A stretch of DNA of 64,000 bases from Candidatus Binatia bacterium (GCA_963664015.2 CAXXLF010000001.1:832001-896000), one strand, 5' to 3'. Shown: positions 16,156 through 24,078, numbered from the stretch's first letter. The notes: a model not told the origin generated them from the letters alone. Translations and numbers: made by a program.

Positions 16156-17040
16156 CTAAATCACCCGCCTCCTTAAATAAGCGCTGAGGTAGTCTACGGC
16201 CGTTACCAGGACATACAGGGCAATCAGAAGGGTCAAGAGTTGATGGCCCCAAAAAAGGCTGATGGCAACGTGAATTCTCTGACCCAGCCCACCCGCCCCG
16301 ACAAACCCGAGCACCGCAGCGATGCGGATATTCACCTCCCAACGATAGAGAATGTAGGAGACAAACTGAGGCAGCACCTGGGGCAGAATGCCGTAAAACA
16401 GGATCTGCATTCGGGTGGCACCCATGGATTGAAGGGACTCGATGGGCTGAGGGTCGACGTCTTCCAGGACCTCCGCAAAGAGTTTACCCAAGACCCCTCC
16501 TGTATGCACCCCCAGGGCGAGTACCCCAGGGAAGGGGCCGAGGCCAACCAGAAAAACAAAGATCAACGCCCAGACCATTTCCGGGACCGTGCGCAGAAAG
16601 TTTAAAATCCCTTTTGCTATTAGGTAAGGGAACATACGCGCCAAACGCTTCCAGCGCCCAATTCCCTCCATCTCATAGAGCAAACCTGAATAAACCAGAT
16701 TTCTGGAGGCAAAGAAGACCAACAACAGGGCAATGACCGTGGCCATTAGAATCCCCACGAACGATATAGCGAAGGTCTCCATCGCGCCCACCGCGGCATC
16801 GACAAGCACCCCTTGGGACAGATCCGGCGGGAACAGCCCCTTGATGTAGACAAAGATCTGTCCGGCTCCATCCTGGCTAAACAATTGCCCAAGGCGGACT
16901 TCCGACCCTTGATAACTCCAAACGAATAACGCGGCGAGGAGCGCTAAAAAGAAATAAACTCGCAGCGATACCCCACGGGATACCCGATATTGATTCCACG
17001 GCTGATCCGTGTTGGTTGTCCTCAAGGGACCATTACTCAT
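16156..17040 (-). CDS. PhnE/PtxC-family ABC permease
   Basis: RTVPEMVWAL, GLGPFPGVLA, GKLFAE, YRWEVNIR..VLGFVGAGGLG. Confidence 0.92.
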   Translation of the reverse strand: MSNGPLRTTNTDQPWNQYRVSRGVSLRVYFFLALLAALFVWSYQGSEVRLGQLFSQDGAGQIFVYIKGLFPPDLSQGVLVDAAVGAMETFAISFVGILMATVIALLLVFFASRNLVYSGLLYEMEGIGRWKRLARMFPYLIAKGILNFLRTVPEMVWALIFVFLVGLGPFPGVLALGVHTGGVLGKLFAEVLEDVDPQPIESLQSMGATRMQILFYGILPQVLPQFVSYILYRWEVNIRIAAVLGFVGAGGLGQRIHVAISLFWGHQLLTLLIALYVLVTAVDYLSAYLRRRVI

Positions 17041-17876
17041 AAAAGACCCCGTATCTTGGCGCTGATGTAGTCTGCGGCTGAAACCAATATAAAAAGCATC
17101 CCCAAGAGCGTCAGCACTTCGTGAAAATTAAACATACGCATGGATATCTCAATCTGCTGGCCCAGTCCTCCCGCACCCACCAAACCTAAAATGGCTGATG
17201 TCCGCACCGCGCACTCCCATCGATAAAGGGTATAGGAAACAAAATTGGGCAGCACCTGAGGGAACCAGCCGTAGAAAAAGATCTGTAACTTGCCGGCACC
17301 TGTGGACTGGAGCGCCTCCAGCGGCCGGGTATTCACCGACTCAAAAATTTCCGCGTAGACCTTTCCCAGCATCCCTCCGTATGCCACCCCGATGGCGAGA
17401 ACGCCCGGAAAAGGTCCCAGACCGACAGCACGCACAAACATAAAGGCCCATACGAACTCGGGTATGCAACGGAACAGGCTGAGAACAGCGCGGGCAAGGG
17501 AGTAAATCGCTACCCTCAGGCTATAACGCCTTATGGAACCCTGAACATCAGCTTCATTGAGGACACCTCGAAAAAGCAACGTACTGGTGGCCAGGAGTCC
17601 TAGGGGAAATCCGATCACCACAGCAATCAGGGTCCCCATAACCGAAATCTGAACGGTTTCCATGGCAGGGCCGACCATGGTGGAGAGAAAGTCCCAGGAG
17701 AGTTCCGGTGGAAACATTCCGCTGACAAAACCCCAAAAATGCTCCCTTCCCTCTTTTTCAAAAAAGAATAGAAAATTGACTTCCGCCCGCCGCCAACTAT
17801 CCACTAGGGCAACGACAAAGAATATTCCGAAGATGTAGGGGAAATAAGAGGTTTGTCGTTTATCCAGCTCGACCAT
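17037..17876 (-). CDS. PhnE/PtxC-family ABC permease
   Basis: RCIPEFVWA, GKVYAE, YRWECAVR..ILGLVGAGGLG. Confidence 0.92.
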   Translation of the reverse strand: MVELDKRQTSYFPYIFGIFFVVALVDSWRRAEVNFLFFFEKEGREHFWGFVSGMFPPELSWDFLSTMVGPAMETVQISVMGTLIAVVIGFPLGLLATSTLLFRGVLNEADVQGSIRRYSLRVAIYSLARAVLSLFRCIPEFVWAFMFVRAVGLGPFPGVLAIGVAYGGMLGKVYAEIFESVNTRPLEALQSTGAGKLQIFFYGWFPQVLPNFVSYTLYRWECAVRTSAILGLVGAGGLGQQIEISMRMFNFHEVLTLLGMLFILVSAADYISAKIRGLL

Positions 17877-18035
17877 GTTTAATCCGGAGGCTTACGTAGG
17901 GAAGAGGTCCACGCCCTTGGAAAAGTTGCCCCATCAGGAACTGGGGATAGCCCTTCTTAGTACGGTCATAGACTCGGGGTCAATAATTCTCGAGGACGAA
18001 TATCCGATTAGCATCGAAAAACAGAGTATTGACCT

Positions 18036-18839
18036 TTAGCTACAAACGCGTGGGGTGTGCTTCCTGGTTAGAGATTCCTCTTGCCCGTTTTCGGGGAGAT
18101 GTCCCGAATAGAGTTCCTCTAGCAGATCGTCGCTCACCTGATCGGGGGCAAGATCGAAAAGGGGCTTTCCGTTTTTGATACCGATAATTCGGGGGAAGTA
18201 AGACAGGGCTAGTTCAATACCATGGAGATTGACCATGAGGGTCTTTTGCATGTTCTGACTGATTCCGATCAGCAATTTCACGATGCTCGAGGCCAGCGAC
18301 GGGTCCACTGAGGAAACCGGCTCGTCTGCAAGAATGACCTCCGGGTCCTGGACCAATACCCGGGCGATAGCCACTCTCTGCTGCTGTCCTCCGGAAAGTT
18401 CATCGGTCCGGCAAAAAATCTTGTCCTCTATACCGACATCCTTGAGCGCCTCATAGGCTCTCTCGATGTCCACTGGCCGGACAAGCGACGCAATAGAGCG
18501 AGCCAGGGACCAGCGGCCGAGCTGTCCGCACAGGACATTGTGGACCACCTTCAAACGCGGGACCAGATTGTGCTGTTGATAAATCGTCCCTATCTTGCGC
18601 CGAACCTCCCTGAGTCTCGAGCCGTGCAGATTCCCGGTTTCGTCCCCGTTGATCCAAAGCTGGCCCGATGAGGGGCGCAAGGTGCAGTTGAGCATGCGAA
18701 AGAGGGTGGTCTTACCTGCCCCGCTGGGACCGATCAAGGCCACCCTCTCCCCCTTCTTTACGTTTAGACTGATGTCGCTAACGGCAACTTGACGCTGGGC
18801 AAATTCCTTGGCGACACCTTCCAGGCGATACTGATACAT
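18036..18839 (-). CDS. PhnC-family ABC ATP-binding protein
   Basis: GPSGAGKTT, LSGGQQQRVAIAR, LADEPVSSVDP. Confidence 0.93.
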   Translation of the reverse strand: MYQYRLEGVAKEFAQRQVAVSDISLNVKKGERVALIGPSGAGKTTLFRMLNCTLRPSSGQLWINGDETGNLHGSRLREVRRKIGTIYQQHNLVPRLKVVHNVLCGQLGRWSLARSIASLVRPVDIERAYEALKDVGIEDKIFCRTDELSGGQQQRVAIARVLVQDPEVILADEPVSSVDPSLASSIVKLLIGISQNMQKTLMVNLHGIELALSYFPRIIGIKNGKPLFDLAPDQVSDDLLEELYSGHLPENGQEESLTRKHTPRVCS

Positions 18840-18854
18840 ATACCTAGCTCAATC

Positions 18855-23149: not shown

Positions 23150-23539
23150 ATGCTCGCCAAGGATATCATGACCAAGAAGGTGATTACCGTAAGTCCTCAG
23201 ACCACCGTCAAGGATCTGGCCAAGACCCTCACCAAGCACAAGATAAGCGGCACTCCAGTCACGGACAAGAGCGGCAAGCTCATGGGCGTGGTTTCTCGCA
23301 CCGATATCGTGGACAAGATCGGGAACAAGGTCAAAGAGATCATGAGCCAGGACATTGTCCGCGTCAGCGAAGAAACACCGGTCGAGGAGATTGCCAACCT
23401 CTTTACCACATACAAGATCAACCGTGTGCCGGTGCTGCAGGGGAAAAAGCTTACGGGGATCGTGAGCCGCGCCGACATCGTCCGGGCCATCGCTATGGGC
23501 AAGCATATAGCGCTGCACACACCCATTTACGACCTGTAA
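23150..23539 (+). CDS. tandem CBS-domain protein
   Basis: AKDIMT..PV..GVVSRTD and VKEIMS..PV..GIVSRAD; AAGGAG RBS. Confidence 0.92.
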   Translation: MLAKDIMTKKVITVSPQTTVKDLAKTLTKHKISGTPVTDKSGKLMGVVSRTDIVDKIGNKVKEIMSQDIVRVSEETPVEEIANLFTTYKINRVPVLQGKKLTGIVSRADIVRAIAMGKHIALHTPIYDL

Positions 23540-23548
23540 CCGGATCAG

Positions 23549-23578
23549 CCCCCGGTCGCAATCCCTTGCTACCGGGGG
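23549..23578. terminator. GC-rich hairpin between convergent genes
   Basis: CCCCCGGT-cGCAA-tccc-TTGCt-ACCGGGGG; no strong U-tract. Confidence 0.5.
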
Positions 23579-23616
23579 TCGAACCGAACCAACCTAATTT
23601 ACGGCCTCAATTAGCC

Positions 23617-24078
23617 CTAATTTATTTTGTCCAACTCGGCCAGGAGGTCTTTGTTTTCCGGGATGCCTTTCTCATACACCTGCCTGAAGCGCACCACACC
23701 CTGCTTATCGATGACAAAAACTGCCCGCTTGGGGTATCCCTCGGGTTTGAGGCAGTCGTACTTGATACTGACATCACCGTGGGGGAAAAAATCCGACAGC
23801 ATCGGAAAATTGATCCCACCCATTTTCTCGGCGAATGCCTTGTGCGAAAAGACCGAATCTACGCTTACGCTCAGGACCTGAGCGTCTTTAGCCTCGAAGC
23901 TCTTTCGATCAGCCTCGAAGTTAATCAATTCCTGTTGTCAGCCGCCGGTAAAGTCCAGCGGATAGAACGCTAAAACAACATTCTTTTCCCCGGTAAAATC
24001 CGCCAGCCCAACCTTCTGGTCCCTCGCCACGGGAAGTGAAAAATCAGGGGCTTTGTCCCCTACATTCGGTAGGCCCAT
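23617..24078 (-). CDS. selenocysteine-containing peroxiredoxin (AhpC/TSA family), 153 aa
   Basis: ATG 24078 with AAGGAG RBS reads [15 protein letters not shown]...[26 protein letters not shown] (23938-23940, codon 47) sits at the Cys of PxxxTxxC and the frame continues into ORF 23617..23928. Confidence 0.88.
23892..23920 (-). promoter_or_regulatory. putative bacterial SECIS element
   Basis: 17 nt after UGA: CUUCGAGGCU-GAUCGAAAG-AGCUUCGAGG, a 10-bp stem with two G-U pairs; loop starts with G, 27 nt from the UGA. Confidence 0.72.

Follow-up and report, generated by a model that had tools for sequence, protein, structure and literature searches.

The locus studied here lies in a 64,000-nt stretch of Candidatus Binatia bacterium (GCA_963664015.2 CAXXLF010000001.1:832001-896000; the window in what follows) and, by ORF reading, consists of five co-oriented ORFs on the minus strand, none of which is interrupted. 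In the sense of transcription, they encode a LysR regulator of the LysR_Se (NF040786) subfamily (304 aa, positions 19857–20771), a periplasmic substrate-binding protein (SBP) of the PhnD superfamily and the TIGR04553 type (286 aa, 18855–19715), a PhnC-like ABC ATPase (267 aa, 18036–18839), and two PhnE-like ABC permeases, permease 1 (279 aa, 17037–17876) and permease 2 (294 aa, 16156–17040). The start of permease 2 and the stop of permease 1 overlap by 4 bases. A ribosome site, AGGAGG (19721–19726), precedes the SBP gene, whose product begins with a signal-like hydrophobic stretch. The ATPase gave its best match to PhnC (TIGR02315, 261.1 bits, just under the cut-off of 266.1) and also matched PF00005, and both permeases matched PhnE best, exceeding the TIGR01097 cut-off of 216.7 with 241.6 bits (permease 1) and 252.7 bits (permease 2). 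An earlier note on this DNA had described the same co-oriented lysR-SBP-ATPase-permease-permease arrangement, and all five ORFs are indeed present and intact. No firm case emerged for its further claim of decay among the other transporters of the window; only two lone components were seen. An ABC ATPase (3201–4199) has no partner found nearby and is followed by 679 bases without an ORF of at least 70 aa; an NMT1-like SBP (9259–10224) stands alone in the window.

Divergent from lysR, the plus strand carries a gene for a GcvT-like folate-binding paralogue (20901–21983). It scored 156.5 bits against TIGR00528, below the cut-off of 235.85, and a canonical gcvT (434.4 bits) is located elsewhere in the genome. 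Farther upstream, on the minus strand, is the gene for a Sec peroxiredoxin with an AhpC/TSA fold (153 aa, 23617–24078). Its distance to the lysR start is 2.8 kb, in agreement with the value of about 3 kb given previously, and that to the SBP start is 3.9 kb. Its in-frame TGA (23938–23940) occupies the peroxidatic-Cys position within the motif FTGGU. Read through this UGA, the frame matched PF00578 (AhpC/TSA) with 129 bits, and TGA was found at the Sec codon in 36/36 orthologues covering it. The PrxU equivalog was rejected as the identity of this protein (73.3 bits versus 270). A SECIS-like hairpin of the peroxiredoxin mRNA (23892–23920, minus strand) begins 20 nt past the UGA and has 7 pairs in a 27-sequence consensus, in which only one-sided changes and no compensatory pairs occur; the single-sequence fold is weak (z = −1.56).

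For comparison, 80 related loci were collected, which are kin, so that counts drawn from them overstate independence. Of the 67 loci that extend at least 2.5 kb upstream, 44 have the GcvT-like paralogue; of the 56 that extend at least 4.5 kb, 34 have an orthologue of the Sec-peroxiredoxin. The proximity of peroxiredoxin and importer may stem from nothing but conserved gene order, given that the housekeeping genes scpA, scpB, rluB, and trpS show synteny in 21 of these loci; any functional link of the peroxiredoxin to the importer is putative.

The LysR Regulator and Its Predicted Operator

The regulator passes NF040786 (LysR_Sec_metab) with 270.4 bits, a margin of only 20 bits over the cut-off of 250, and contains the domains PF00126 (HTH_1, 68.8 bits) and PF03466 (LysR_substrate, 153.1 bits). 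It is the sole NF040786 match in the genome at E ≤ 0.001. The LysR copies of two relatives that were scanned also pass this model (306.1 and 298.8 bits). Among the 70 loci that extend at least 1.5 kb upstream, 62 have a same-strand LysR homologue 5′ of the SBP gene, and in 39 it directly adjoins that gene. The LysR_Se subfamily has been described as restricted to SelD-containing organisms, with HrsM of Methanococcus as the archaeal orthologue and with a conserved proline of the substrate domain as a trait specific to it (Lin et al. 2015, PMC5322559). HrsM is reported to be a selenium-responsive LysR regulator (PMC5322559, PMC9312934, PMC11097638), and the earlier statement that this regulator subfamily had no demonstration behind it is therefore out of date.

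A composite LysR-type operator, ATAG-N7-CTAT-N7-ATAG (19764–19789, minus strand), is located 49–74 nt 5′ of the SBP start codon, with a TTGACA −35-like hexamer (19769–19774) overlapping its second half. Genome-wide, this site occurs once, versus 0.26 expected from base composition. The operator is conserved among relatives: of 76 related loci, 34 have an ATAG-type first box and 30 have the second box 5′ of the SBP gene. Moreover, 51 of these 76 loci contain the palindrome ATAG-N7-CTAT or ATCG-N7-CGAT within 260 nt 5′ of that gene, compared with 38 of 4,429 control windows drawn from the same related loci. We infer both the recognition of the operator by the LysR_Se protein and the direction of regulation by the latter. 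Whereas HrsM reportedly represses genes for Cys-isoforms of selenoproteins, the operator here is situated at the importer promoter. A search for operator boxes with up to one mismatch gave none in the vicinity of selA, selD, tRNA-Sec, or the peroxiredoxin gene; thus, no wider selenium regulon emerges.

Family and Binding Pocket of the SBP

The SBP passes TIGR04553 (NCBIfam ABC_peri_selen, "putative selenate ABC transporter SBP") with 336.5 bits, against a curated whole-protein cut-off of 250, although the TIGR04553 and NF040786 models possibly derive from selenium gene contexts, in which case their labels would not be independent of such contexts. PF12974 was matched too. In the HMM comparison that the earlier note had proposed, the sister models fall behind, with 230.7 bits for TIGR01098 and 181.8 bits for TIGR03431 (PhnD), the latter failing its cut-off of 261.1. 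SBPs that are 73–82% identical are named "putative selenate ABC transporter substrate-binding protein" in NCBI-derived records, whereas JGI records use the term phosphonate. The expectation that pipelines would label the system as phosphonate transport is thus correct for JGI, and for the ATPase and permeases with their matches to PhnC and PhnE, but not for the NCBI-derived SBP records. The SBP motifs named beforehand are present as SAIPDENP (residues 30–37) and SGHLMPR (residues 143–149). A 15-sequence family alignment shows no variation in either motif or in the ligand residues D34, Y67, T88, S140–S143, H172, N190, D219, and Y220.

Among proteins of solved structure, PhnD1 (PDB 7S6G, 7ZCK, 5LQ5, and 5LQ8) is the closest relative of the SBP (211 and 200 bits). 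The best match is Synechococcus PhnD1 (7S6G, E 1.4e-61), followed by Prochlorococcus PhnD1 (5LQ5) and then by PtxB, and the identity to picocyanobacterial PhnD1 is ~45% (115/256 positions, hand count on the alignment). PtxB and PhnD proper (PDB 5O2J and 3P7I) belong to the same PF12974 fold family and share the ABC architecture, yet they resemble the SBP far less (117 and 66 bits). PhnD1 is described as binding phosphite (0.67–4.3 µM), phosphate, and methylphosphonate, with an Asp as hydrogen-bond acceptor and a Tyr that caps the ligand, leaving a small pocket whose capped position tolerates H, OH, or CH3 (PMC10284923).

The residues of the two pockets were mapped by hand from the alignment, the published PhnD1 residue list, and the family invariants. 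Y44, S124-T125-S126, H156, D203, and the capping Y204 of PhnD1 correspond to Y67, S141-T142-S143, H172, D219, and Y220 of the SBP, and T65, S123, D11, and N174 to T88, S140, D34, and N190; each of these SBP residues is an invariant of the family alignment. The anion contacts, the buried-water contacts, and the capping Tyr are identical. Since the first-shell residues are the same as in the phosphite/phosphate-binding PhnD1, sequence alone cannot separate Se from P. An Asp acceptor requires a protonated oxygen on the ligand, and selenite is protonated at neutral pH (pKa2 about 8), whereas selenate is not (pKa2 about 2). Because the Asp acceptor is kept and only selenite is protonated at neutral pH, the pocket chemistry favors selenite over the selenate of the family label. 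Differences from PhnD1 are also present beside the ligand residues, where the family-invariant V139, H145, and V221 of the SBP are replaced by E, R, and H in PhnD1. Moreover, PhnD1 was assayed with phosphite, phosphate, and methylphosphonate, and "selen" is absent from the text of that paper (PMC10284923). PhnD1 and the SBP both have PhnC/PhnE-type partners; the cyanobacterial hosts of PhnD1 are described as lacking a C-P lyase, and none was found in this genome either. The literature, as far as its text was accessible, provided no binding or transport data for any member of the TIGR04553-type importer family.

The close relationship to PhnD1 raises the question of whether the operon, like PhnD1-PhnCE of picocyanobacteria, imports a phosphorus oxyanion (phosphite, phosphate, or methylphosphonate), in which case its selenium neighbors would reflect co-regulation or chance. 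Every PhnD1 ligand residue is kept in the SBP, whose best solved relatives are PhnD1 and then PtxB. The partner proteins are of the PhnC/PhnE type, as the best matches of ATPase and permeases indicate. No PstS, no PstB above the cut-off, and no Pit were found among the phosphate uptake genes of the genome, which might therefore rely on Phn-type systems. Nevertheless, we consider such a phosphorus importer unlikely. The SBP is under the PhnD equivalog cut-off, and a search of the genome (97.3% complete) yielded no match to PhnJ (C-P lyase, PF06007). Among the neighbors scanned at 15370–25489, no 2-hydroxyacid dehydrogenase of the PtxD type was found; the earlier observation of no C-P lyase or ptxD genes in the window holds for the former across the genome and for the latter among these neighbors. 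The need for phosphorus would be covered elsewhere, because the genome contains a second PhnDCE set, which is the PtxB-like one, and a gene of the Na/Pi cotransporter family.

Gene Context in Related Loci and Genomes

The ATPase gene adjoins the SBP gene in 77/80 related loci; permease 1 is found in 74/80 and permease 2 in 73/80. In 18/80 loci, selD lies directly 5′ of the SBP gene in the same orientation, 27–319 nt away, and every one of these selD genes carries a stop codon in frame where Sec is expected. The selD-linked loci are labeled Methylomirabilota/Rokubacteria, with one Limnocylindria and some given only as "uncultured bacterium". A PrxQ-type gene is found just 5′ of the SBP gene in 4 loci, its active-site codon being a stop in 2 and Cys in 2. 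Homologues from the same phylum as the genome studied here differ in context above and below the TIGR04553 cut-off. One with 345 bits adjoins LysR_Se near an ArsM-like selenoprotein gene, whereas another with 208.5 bits adjoins phnP, phnN, and phnM, and a third with 172.2 bits adjoins a PtxD-like 2-hydroxyacid dehydrogenase. The low scores of the two homologues examined in phosphorus contexts, the Sec-selD within the operon of relatives, and a regulator and operator of the selenium-associated LysR type all argue against a phosphorus ligand.

The order of the genes also bears on whether the SBP is mainly a periplasmic sensor and not the receptor of an importer. AioX and ArrX, members of the same superfamily, act as sensors with two-component systems. 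In the present family, however, an ATPase gene and two permease genes directly follow the SBP gene in 73–77 of the 80 loci, and in the locus studied here no histidine kinase gene is adjacent; a sensor is hardly credible.

Another small anion or an organo-selenium compound (arsenite/arsenate, sulfite, tellurite, methaneseleninate, or selenophosphate) is a very unlikely ligand. The superfamily does include the arsenate binder ArrX (53 bits) and a deposited PtxB-like "Aio" protein (41 bits), but both are far less similar to the SBP than PhnD1 is, and no ars, aio, or arr genes were found among the scanned neighbors. The latitude reported for the capped position of PhnD1 (H, OH, or CH3) would suit such compounds, although the capping Tyr is described as making that pocket small. 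The ArsM-like selenoprotein gene near the operon of one relative points in the same direction, as does the conserved divergent neighbor, a GcvT-like paralogue that possibly transfers C1 units; yet, this paralogue is limited to one group of loci and is absent from the selD-linked ones.

The genome contains the Sec decoding set whose presence had been left to be checked, namely tRNA-Sec, selA (606 bits), selB (409 bits), and selD (373 bits), the last with a single in-frame TGA. All are on the other contig; selD is outside the importer operon in this genome. Co-occurrence, the other check proposed at the outset, gave selD in 47 of 50 transporter-bearing genomes, but also in 370 of the 401 genomes of a phylum sample, and is thus non-discriminating. 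Only 4/401 genomes of that sample carry the transporter, so it is not the way in which Sec users in general obtain selenium; within the same class of the sample, the genome studied here is the only one to exceed the transporter cut-off. A candidate for the same job, moving selenium across the membrane, is YedE (TIGR04112), a predicted selenium-related membrane transporter of SelD-containing organisms (PMC5322559) that belongs to an unrelated family. YedE was not found in this genome and is above the cut-off in none of the 50 transporter-bearing genomes, versus 161 of the 401 phylum-sample genomes, a contrast confounded by lineage in that YedE was found in no sampled genome of this class.

Proposed Function of the Importer

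Collectively, these observations suggest that the five genes probably encode an ABC importer of a small selenium oxyanion together with a dedicated LysR_Se regulator, and that this oxyanion would be selenite rather than selenate. The core of the earlier reading, a LysR-controlled importer with selenium rather than phosphonate as its putative ligand, is supported by the best match to TIGR04553, the presence of selD in the genome, the Sec-selD in operons of relatives, and the conserved operator.

In the proposed mechanism, LysR_Se would bind ATAG-N7-CTAT-N7-ATAG over the −35 region of the importer promoter, and transcription would be set by a selenium signal. The exported SBP would capture an XO3-type anion in a pocket formed by Y67, S140–S143, H172, and D219, with Y220 as the cap; the ligand would be hydrogen selenite (HSeO3−), not the selenate of the database label. 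The SBP would then hand the anion to a heterodimer of the two PhnE-like permeases, powered by the PhnC-like ATPase. In the cytoplasm, selenite would be reduced to selenide, which the Sec-containing SelD, together with SelA, SelB, and tRNA-Sec, would route into selenoproteins, e.g., the peroxiredoxin 2.8 kb away.

A selenium importer of this kind has already been predicted, being flagged by NCBIfam and in the selenoneine work, where "a putative selenate transporter" is reported near many sen clusters (10.1101/2022.04.13.486033). The operon described here differs in that it adjoins neither selD nor sen; its neighbors are LysR_Se, the GcvT-like paralogue, and, farther off, the Sec-peroxiredoxin. 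What the locus adds is a conserved operator, a contrast of gene context above and below the family cut-off, and a chemical argument for selenite over selenate.

For the family as a whole, the chances are about even that it is the long-sought bacterial system dedicated to high-affinity uptake of selenium, in the form of hydrogen selenite, with LysR_Se as a selenium-status switch at the ATAG/ATCG-N7 palindrome, and that it replaces YedE where the latter is absent. As a bolder corollary of dedicated uptake, the GcvT-like paralogue and the Sec-peroxiredoxin would belong to the same selenium homeostasis unit. The operon family offers a concrete, easily expressed candidate, and the ligand specificity of its SBP might bear on why the close relative PhnD1 binds phosphite although the cyanobacteria that have it are unable to use this compound.

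Family assignment of the importer operon

Five co-oriented, uninterrupted ORFs lie on the minus strand at 16156–20771, and the gene order described in the earlier note, lysR–SBP–ATPase–permease–permease, is present with every ORF intact. The first gene (19857–20771) encodes a LysR-family regulator with HTH_1 and LysR_substrate domains. In line with the earlier note, it belongs with the selenium-associated LysR subfamily (LysR_Se, model NF040786), scoring 270.4 bits against a cut-off of 250. It is followed by the genes for a periplasmic substrate-binding protein (SBP, PF12974; 18855–19715), a PhnC-like ATPase (18036–18839; 261.1 bits against a cut-off of 266.1), and two PhnE-like permeases assigned by profile scan (17037–17876 and 16156–17040). 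The SBP scores 336.5 bits on TIGR04553, the model for putative selenate-binding proteins (cut-off 250), 230.7 bits on the broad sister model TIGR01098, and 181.8 bits on the PhnD equivalog, below the cut-off of 261.1; by family scores, PhnD/PtxB is not its best match. The motifs SAIPD and GHLMPR reported earlier are both there, as SAIPDENP and SGHLMPR, and they are invariant across 15 aligned family members that are 73–87% identical to this SBP. Members of this large family are closely conserved, the best 120 database proteins all being at least 69% identical to the SBP. Labeling of such proteins as phosphonate transporters, predicted in the earlier note, holds for JGI records (‘phosphonate transport system substrate-binding protein’) but not for NCBI-derived records, which already read ‘putative selenate ABC transporter substrate-binding protein’.

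LysR proteins tend to cross-match, yet at E ≤ 0.001 the LysR_Se model hits just one stretch of the genome (six candidates scored); the genome may contain a single LysR-type regulator. The spacer between the ATPase gene and the first permease gene (17877–18035) is 159 bases long and much shorter in other loci; aligned together with short coding flanks to the two closest loci, it shows a mean column identity of 89%. An Rfam scan of 15000–26000 at E ≤ 0.1, this spacer included, gave zero matches.

On the opposite side of lysR, GcvT-like, GAPDH, and CBS-pair genes run divergently; beyond the last of these, an AhpC/TSA peroxiredoxin gene (23617–24078) and then a Nudix gene lie on the minus strand. 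The GcvT-family paralogue (20901–21983, plus strand) scores 156.5 bits on TIGR00528, below the cut-off, and the canonical gcvT (434 bits) is found elsewhere in the genome. Of 67 related loci, 44 show the paralogue in this same place, and it directly adjoins the SBP gene in four loci without lysR (L050, L052, L079, and L088); that it performs a C1-transfer step with methylated selenium as substrate is a guess. A three-gene molybdenum hydroxylase set of the xanthine dehydrogenase family (10378–14118, plus strand; 2Fe-2S, MoCo-binding, and FAD subunits) is found past an SDR gene, some 2 kb downstream of the operon's last permease. Decay of other transporters in the window had also been proposed, and hints of it, not proof, were found: an isochorismatase ORF covering only profile positions 95–164 (8734–9204, plus strand), an ABC ATPase (3201–4199, plus strand) followed by 679 bases without an ORF of at least 70 aa, and an NMT1-like binding protein without an adjoining permease (9259–10224, minus strand). 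DAHP synthase (54886–55856, minus strand) is present as two overlapping ORFs matching profile positions 14–110 and 117–265, i.e., a frameshift that reflects a disrupted gene or else an error in sequencing.

Selenocysteine use and gene context in relatives

The genome uses selenocysteine. A second contig carries selA (606 bits), selB (409 bits), and selD (373 bits, with one in-frame TGA) grouped together, with tRNA-Sec about 10 kb beyond them; thus, all the components that the earlier note had proposed looking for, selD among them, were found, and neither this search nor the SBP scores produced the outcome that the note had named as refuting. The peroxiredoxin near the operon, 153 aa long, has an in-frame TGA at its peroxidatic position (motif FTGGU), as had been reported. 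This TGA is kept in 36 of the 36 orthologues covering the codon, which marks the gene as a genuine selenoprotein gene. A conserved 7-pair hairpin begins 20 nt past the UGA (27 sequences); none of the 10 predicted pairs showed compensatory changes, one-sided changes only being seen, and the single-sequence z-score of this SECIS-like hairpin is −1.56. An orthologue of the peroxiredoxin was found in 34 of the 56 loci that extend 4.5 kb or more upstream, and scpA, scpB, rluB, and trpS are also syntenic in 21 of those loci; in the window, scpB and a pseudouridine synthase gene lie at 30796–32203. In view of this synteny, the peroxiredoxin may be a neighbor merely by conserved gene order, and it was not counted in the importer unit. 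The earlier observation of a regulator and importer close to a Sec-peroxiredoxin is confirmed.

A scan with one genome per species gave 189 relatives, of which 80 loci were kept, labeled Candidatus Binatia, Syntrophobacter-type and other Deltaproteobacteria, Methylomirabilota/Rokubacteria, Acidiferrales, and Limnocylindria. These loci are kin, and their counts overstate independence; they include L017/G403 and L063/G448, from genomes flagged as unpublished, neither of which is the sole support of any claim. In tblastn searches with the window proteins, 77 of the 80 loci have the ATPase downstream of the SBP, and 74 and 73 have the permeases. Of the 70 loci with at least 1.5 kb upstream, 62 have a LysR homologue there in the same orientation, directly adjacent in 39. 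In 18 of the 80 loci, selD immediately precedes the SBP gene at a distance of 27–319 nt, and every one of these 18 copies shows an in-frame stop codon at the Sec site. Most of these loci, which are labeled Methylomirabilota/Rokubacteria, Limnocylindria (one), or in some cases only ‘uncultured bacterium’, have the order lysR_Se, selD, SBP, ATPase, permease, permease; in one of them, LysR reaches 306 bits on NF040786. In four further loci, a gene for an EgtB/SenA/OvoA-like sulfoxide synthase, split in ORF calling, is lodged between lysR_Se and the SBP gene (L026:7553–9803, L027:6628–9645, L028:6760–9782, and L034:7539–8873), scoring 145–217 bits, under all three cut-offs. A PrxQ-type peroxiredoxin gene occupies the same interval in L026–L028 by one count and in all four by another, with a stop at the active-site codon in two loci and Cys in two. 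In L028, this interval also contains a second PhnD-like gene, a distant one. A selenoneine preprint mentions ‘a putative selenate transporter’ close to many sen clusters (10.1101/2022.04.13.486033).

Within the phylum, TIGR04553 matches above the cut-off occur in only 4 of 401 sampled genomes, and several loci above and below the cut-off were compared. In genome G004, the gene for the SBP (345 bits) is preceded by lysR_Se (298.8 bits) and, between the two, by a gene for a putative porin (PF16930, 60.9 bits); 1.3 kb past the permease gene is an ArsM-like methyltransferase gene matching selenoprotein models (these two genes are jointly listed at 7010–8086/1971–2561 of L113, G004:C3). Below the cut-off, the protein of G275 (208.5 bits) adjoins phnP, phnN, and phnM, genes of the C-P lyase pathway, and that of G265 (172.2 bits) adjoins PhnC, PhnE, and a member of the 2-hydroxyacid dehydrogenases, the group to which PtxD belongs. 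In this small sample, the TIGR04553 cut-off divides selenium from phosphorus contexts. Two other in-phylum carriers were left out: G154, with no complete SBP ORF and a partial ATPase match, which withheld bases in that genome may explain, and G018, on a short contig. In the regions taken from G270 and G370, no protein matched the SBP at a threshold of 1e-40.

Co-occurrence across genomes, the other check proposed earlier, did not discriminate. Since selD is common to 370 of the 401 phylum genomes, its presence above the cut-off in 47 of 50 transporter-bearing genomes (those of 50 of the 80 loci) says nothing here, and this line of evidence was dropped. YedE was proposed as a selenium transporter by Lin et al. 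2015, who defined LysR_Se; their text contains no occurrence of ‘ABC’ (PMC5322559). A profile search found no YedE in the genome of the window, and YedE was above the cut-off in 0 of the 50 transporter-bearing genomes versus 161 of the 401 phylum genomes, the four in-phylum carriers being absent from the 161. These counts are suggestive of complementary distributions. However, the sampled genomes of the window's own class have no YedE and, save that of the window itself, no transporter above the cut-off, so lineage is a confounder and complementarity was retained only as a weak point.

A predicted operator upstream of the SBP gene

The gap between lysR and the SBP gene contains, on the minus strand (19789→19764), the composite site ATAG-GTAAAAT-CTAT-TTGACAT-ATAG, i.e., two overlapping palindromes of the T-N11-A type, the second of which spans a TTGACA hexamer. 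Among the 76 loci with enough upstream sequence, the ATAG-type first box precedes the SBP gene in 34 and the second box in 30. The boxes of the selD-linked loci have ATCG/CGAT half-sites and fall no more than 260 nt upstream of the SBP gene. Either form was found within this distance in 51 of the 76 loci, versus 38 of 4,429 other 260-nt windows from the same loci. The LysR control of the importer claimed in the earlier note thus gains a conserved predicted operator of the LysR type.

Genome-wide, the composite site was observed once, against 0.26 expected from base composition, and the importer promoter alone carries one. The single box ATAG-N7-CTAT is not enriched (25 observed versus about 39 expected), and no box with up to one mismatch was found near selA, selD, tRNA-Sec, the GcvT-like gene, the Nudix gene, or the peroxiredoxin gene; a LysR_Se regulon defined from the operator was rejected on these grounds. 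Boxes at the importer promoter and none near the Sec genes point to LysR_Se as a local regulator of that promoter, which it would bind, and not of a wider regulon. Lin et al. 2015 (PMC5322559) give HrsM of Methanococcus as the archaeal LysR_Se orthologue, and this protein has been described as a selenium-responsive regulator.

The −35-like hexamer of the importer promoter was identified by eye; a sigma-70 consensus scan left this promoter unflagged, and no good −10 was found. Between the hexamer and the SBP ribosome site is a perfect 16-base palindrome, TAACGATATATCGTTA (19748–19763, minus strand), seen in 0 of the 80 related loci; it could serve as an additional operator or form a hairpin in the transcript.

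Binding pocket, likely ligand, and the phosphorus alternative

The fold of the SBP is fixed by its match to solved structures. Its nearest solved relatives are the PhnD1 proteins from marine Synechococcus (7S6G/7ZCK, E 1.4e-61) and from Prochlorococcus (5LQ5/5LQ8), ahead of PtxB proteins and, with much weaker matches, of E. coli PhnD, ArrX, the PtxB-like ‘Aio’ protein, and HtxB. According to Shah et al. 2023 (PMC10284923), PhnD1 binds phosphite at 0.67–4.3 µM, phosphate at 7.4–88 µM, and, in three of four Synechococcus proteins, methylphosphonate at 17–47 µM; it shows no binding of hypophosphite. The same source gives the anion contacts as Y44, S124-T125-S126, H156, D203 (an Asp acting as hydrogen-bond acceptor), and the capping Tyr Y204, with T65, S123, D11, and N174 in a second layer. 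Mapped by hand on the alignment with PhnD1, this set is entirely kept in the SBP as Y67, S141-T142-S143, H172, D219, Y220, T88, S140, D34, and N190, all invariant in the 15-sequence family alignment. Beside these, the family-invariant V139, H145, and V221 of the SBP replace E, R, and H of PhnD1. As every PhnD1 ligand residue is conserved, selenium and phosphorus ligands are inseparable by sequence, and import of a phosphorus oxyanion stays alive as an alternative.

That alternative draws further on the genome, in which family searches found no PstS of either type, no Pit, and no PstB above the cut-off, the two best PstB matches belonging to amino-acid ABC systems. On the other hand, the C-P lyase gene phnJ was not found in this 97.3%-complete genome, in agreement with the absence of C-P lyase genes from the window noted earlier. 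In addition, a Na/Pi cotransporter family gene, a PBP_like_2 protein, and a second PhnD-PhnC-PhnE set are present, and these would provide the cell with other candidate phosphorus routes besides the operon. The second set, which is PtxB-like, lies on the same contig among kdsA, kdsB, pyrG, nadK, and recN (jointly listed with the cotransporter gene at C1:1217126–1219803 and C1:278839–279699), and among solved proteins its SBP matches PtxB best (5LV1, 156 bits). Import of a phosphorus oxyanion by the operon is judged unlikely. Import of a selenium oxyanion is the probable function, its core being supported by the family scores, the Sec machinery, and the selD and LysR_Se contexts, and it stands, as in the earlier note, as a prediction; the remaining share of confidence goes to other ligands or roles.

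The pocket appears suited to a small XO3 anion with one protonated oxygen. At neutral pH, selenite is largely HSeO3−, which is phosphite-shaped, whereas selenate is fully deprotonated and sulfate-like. Selenite would for this reason be favored as the predicted ligand over the database label ‘selenate’.

A 2022 review states that a high-affinity selenium transporter had yet to be identified (PMC9312934), and the searched full-text literature, as far as its text was available, contained no binding or transport experiment on TIGR04553, a selenate ABC transporter, or PhnD with selenite. An importer of this kind is already predicted in curated databases, and the idea is not new. What this locus adds is a conserved predicted operator, a contrast in gene context above and below the TIGR04553 cut-off, and an argument for selenite as the likely ligand.
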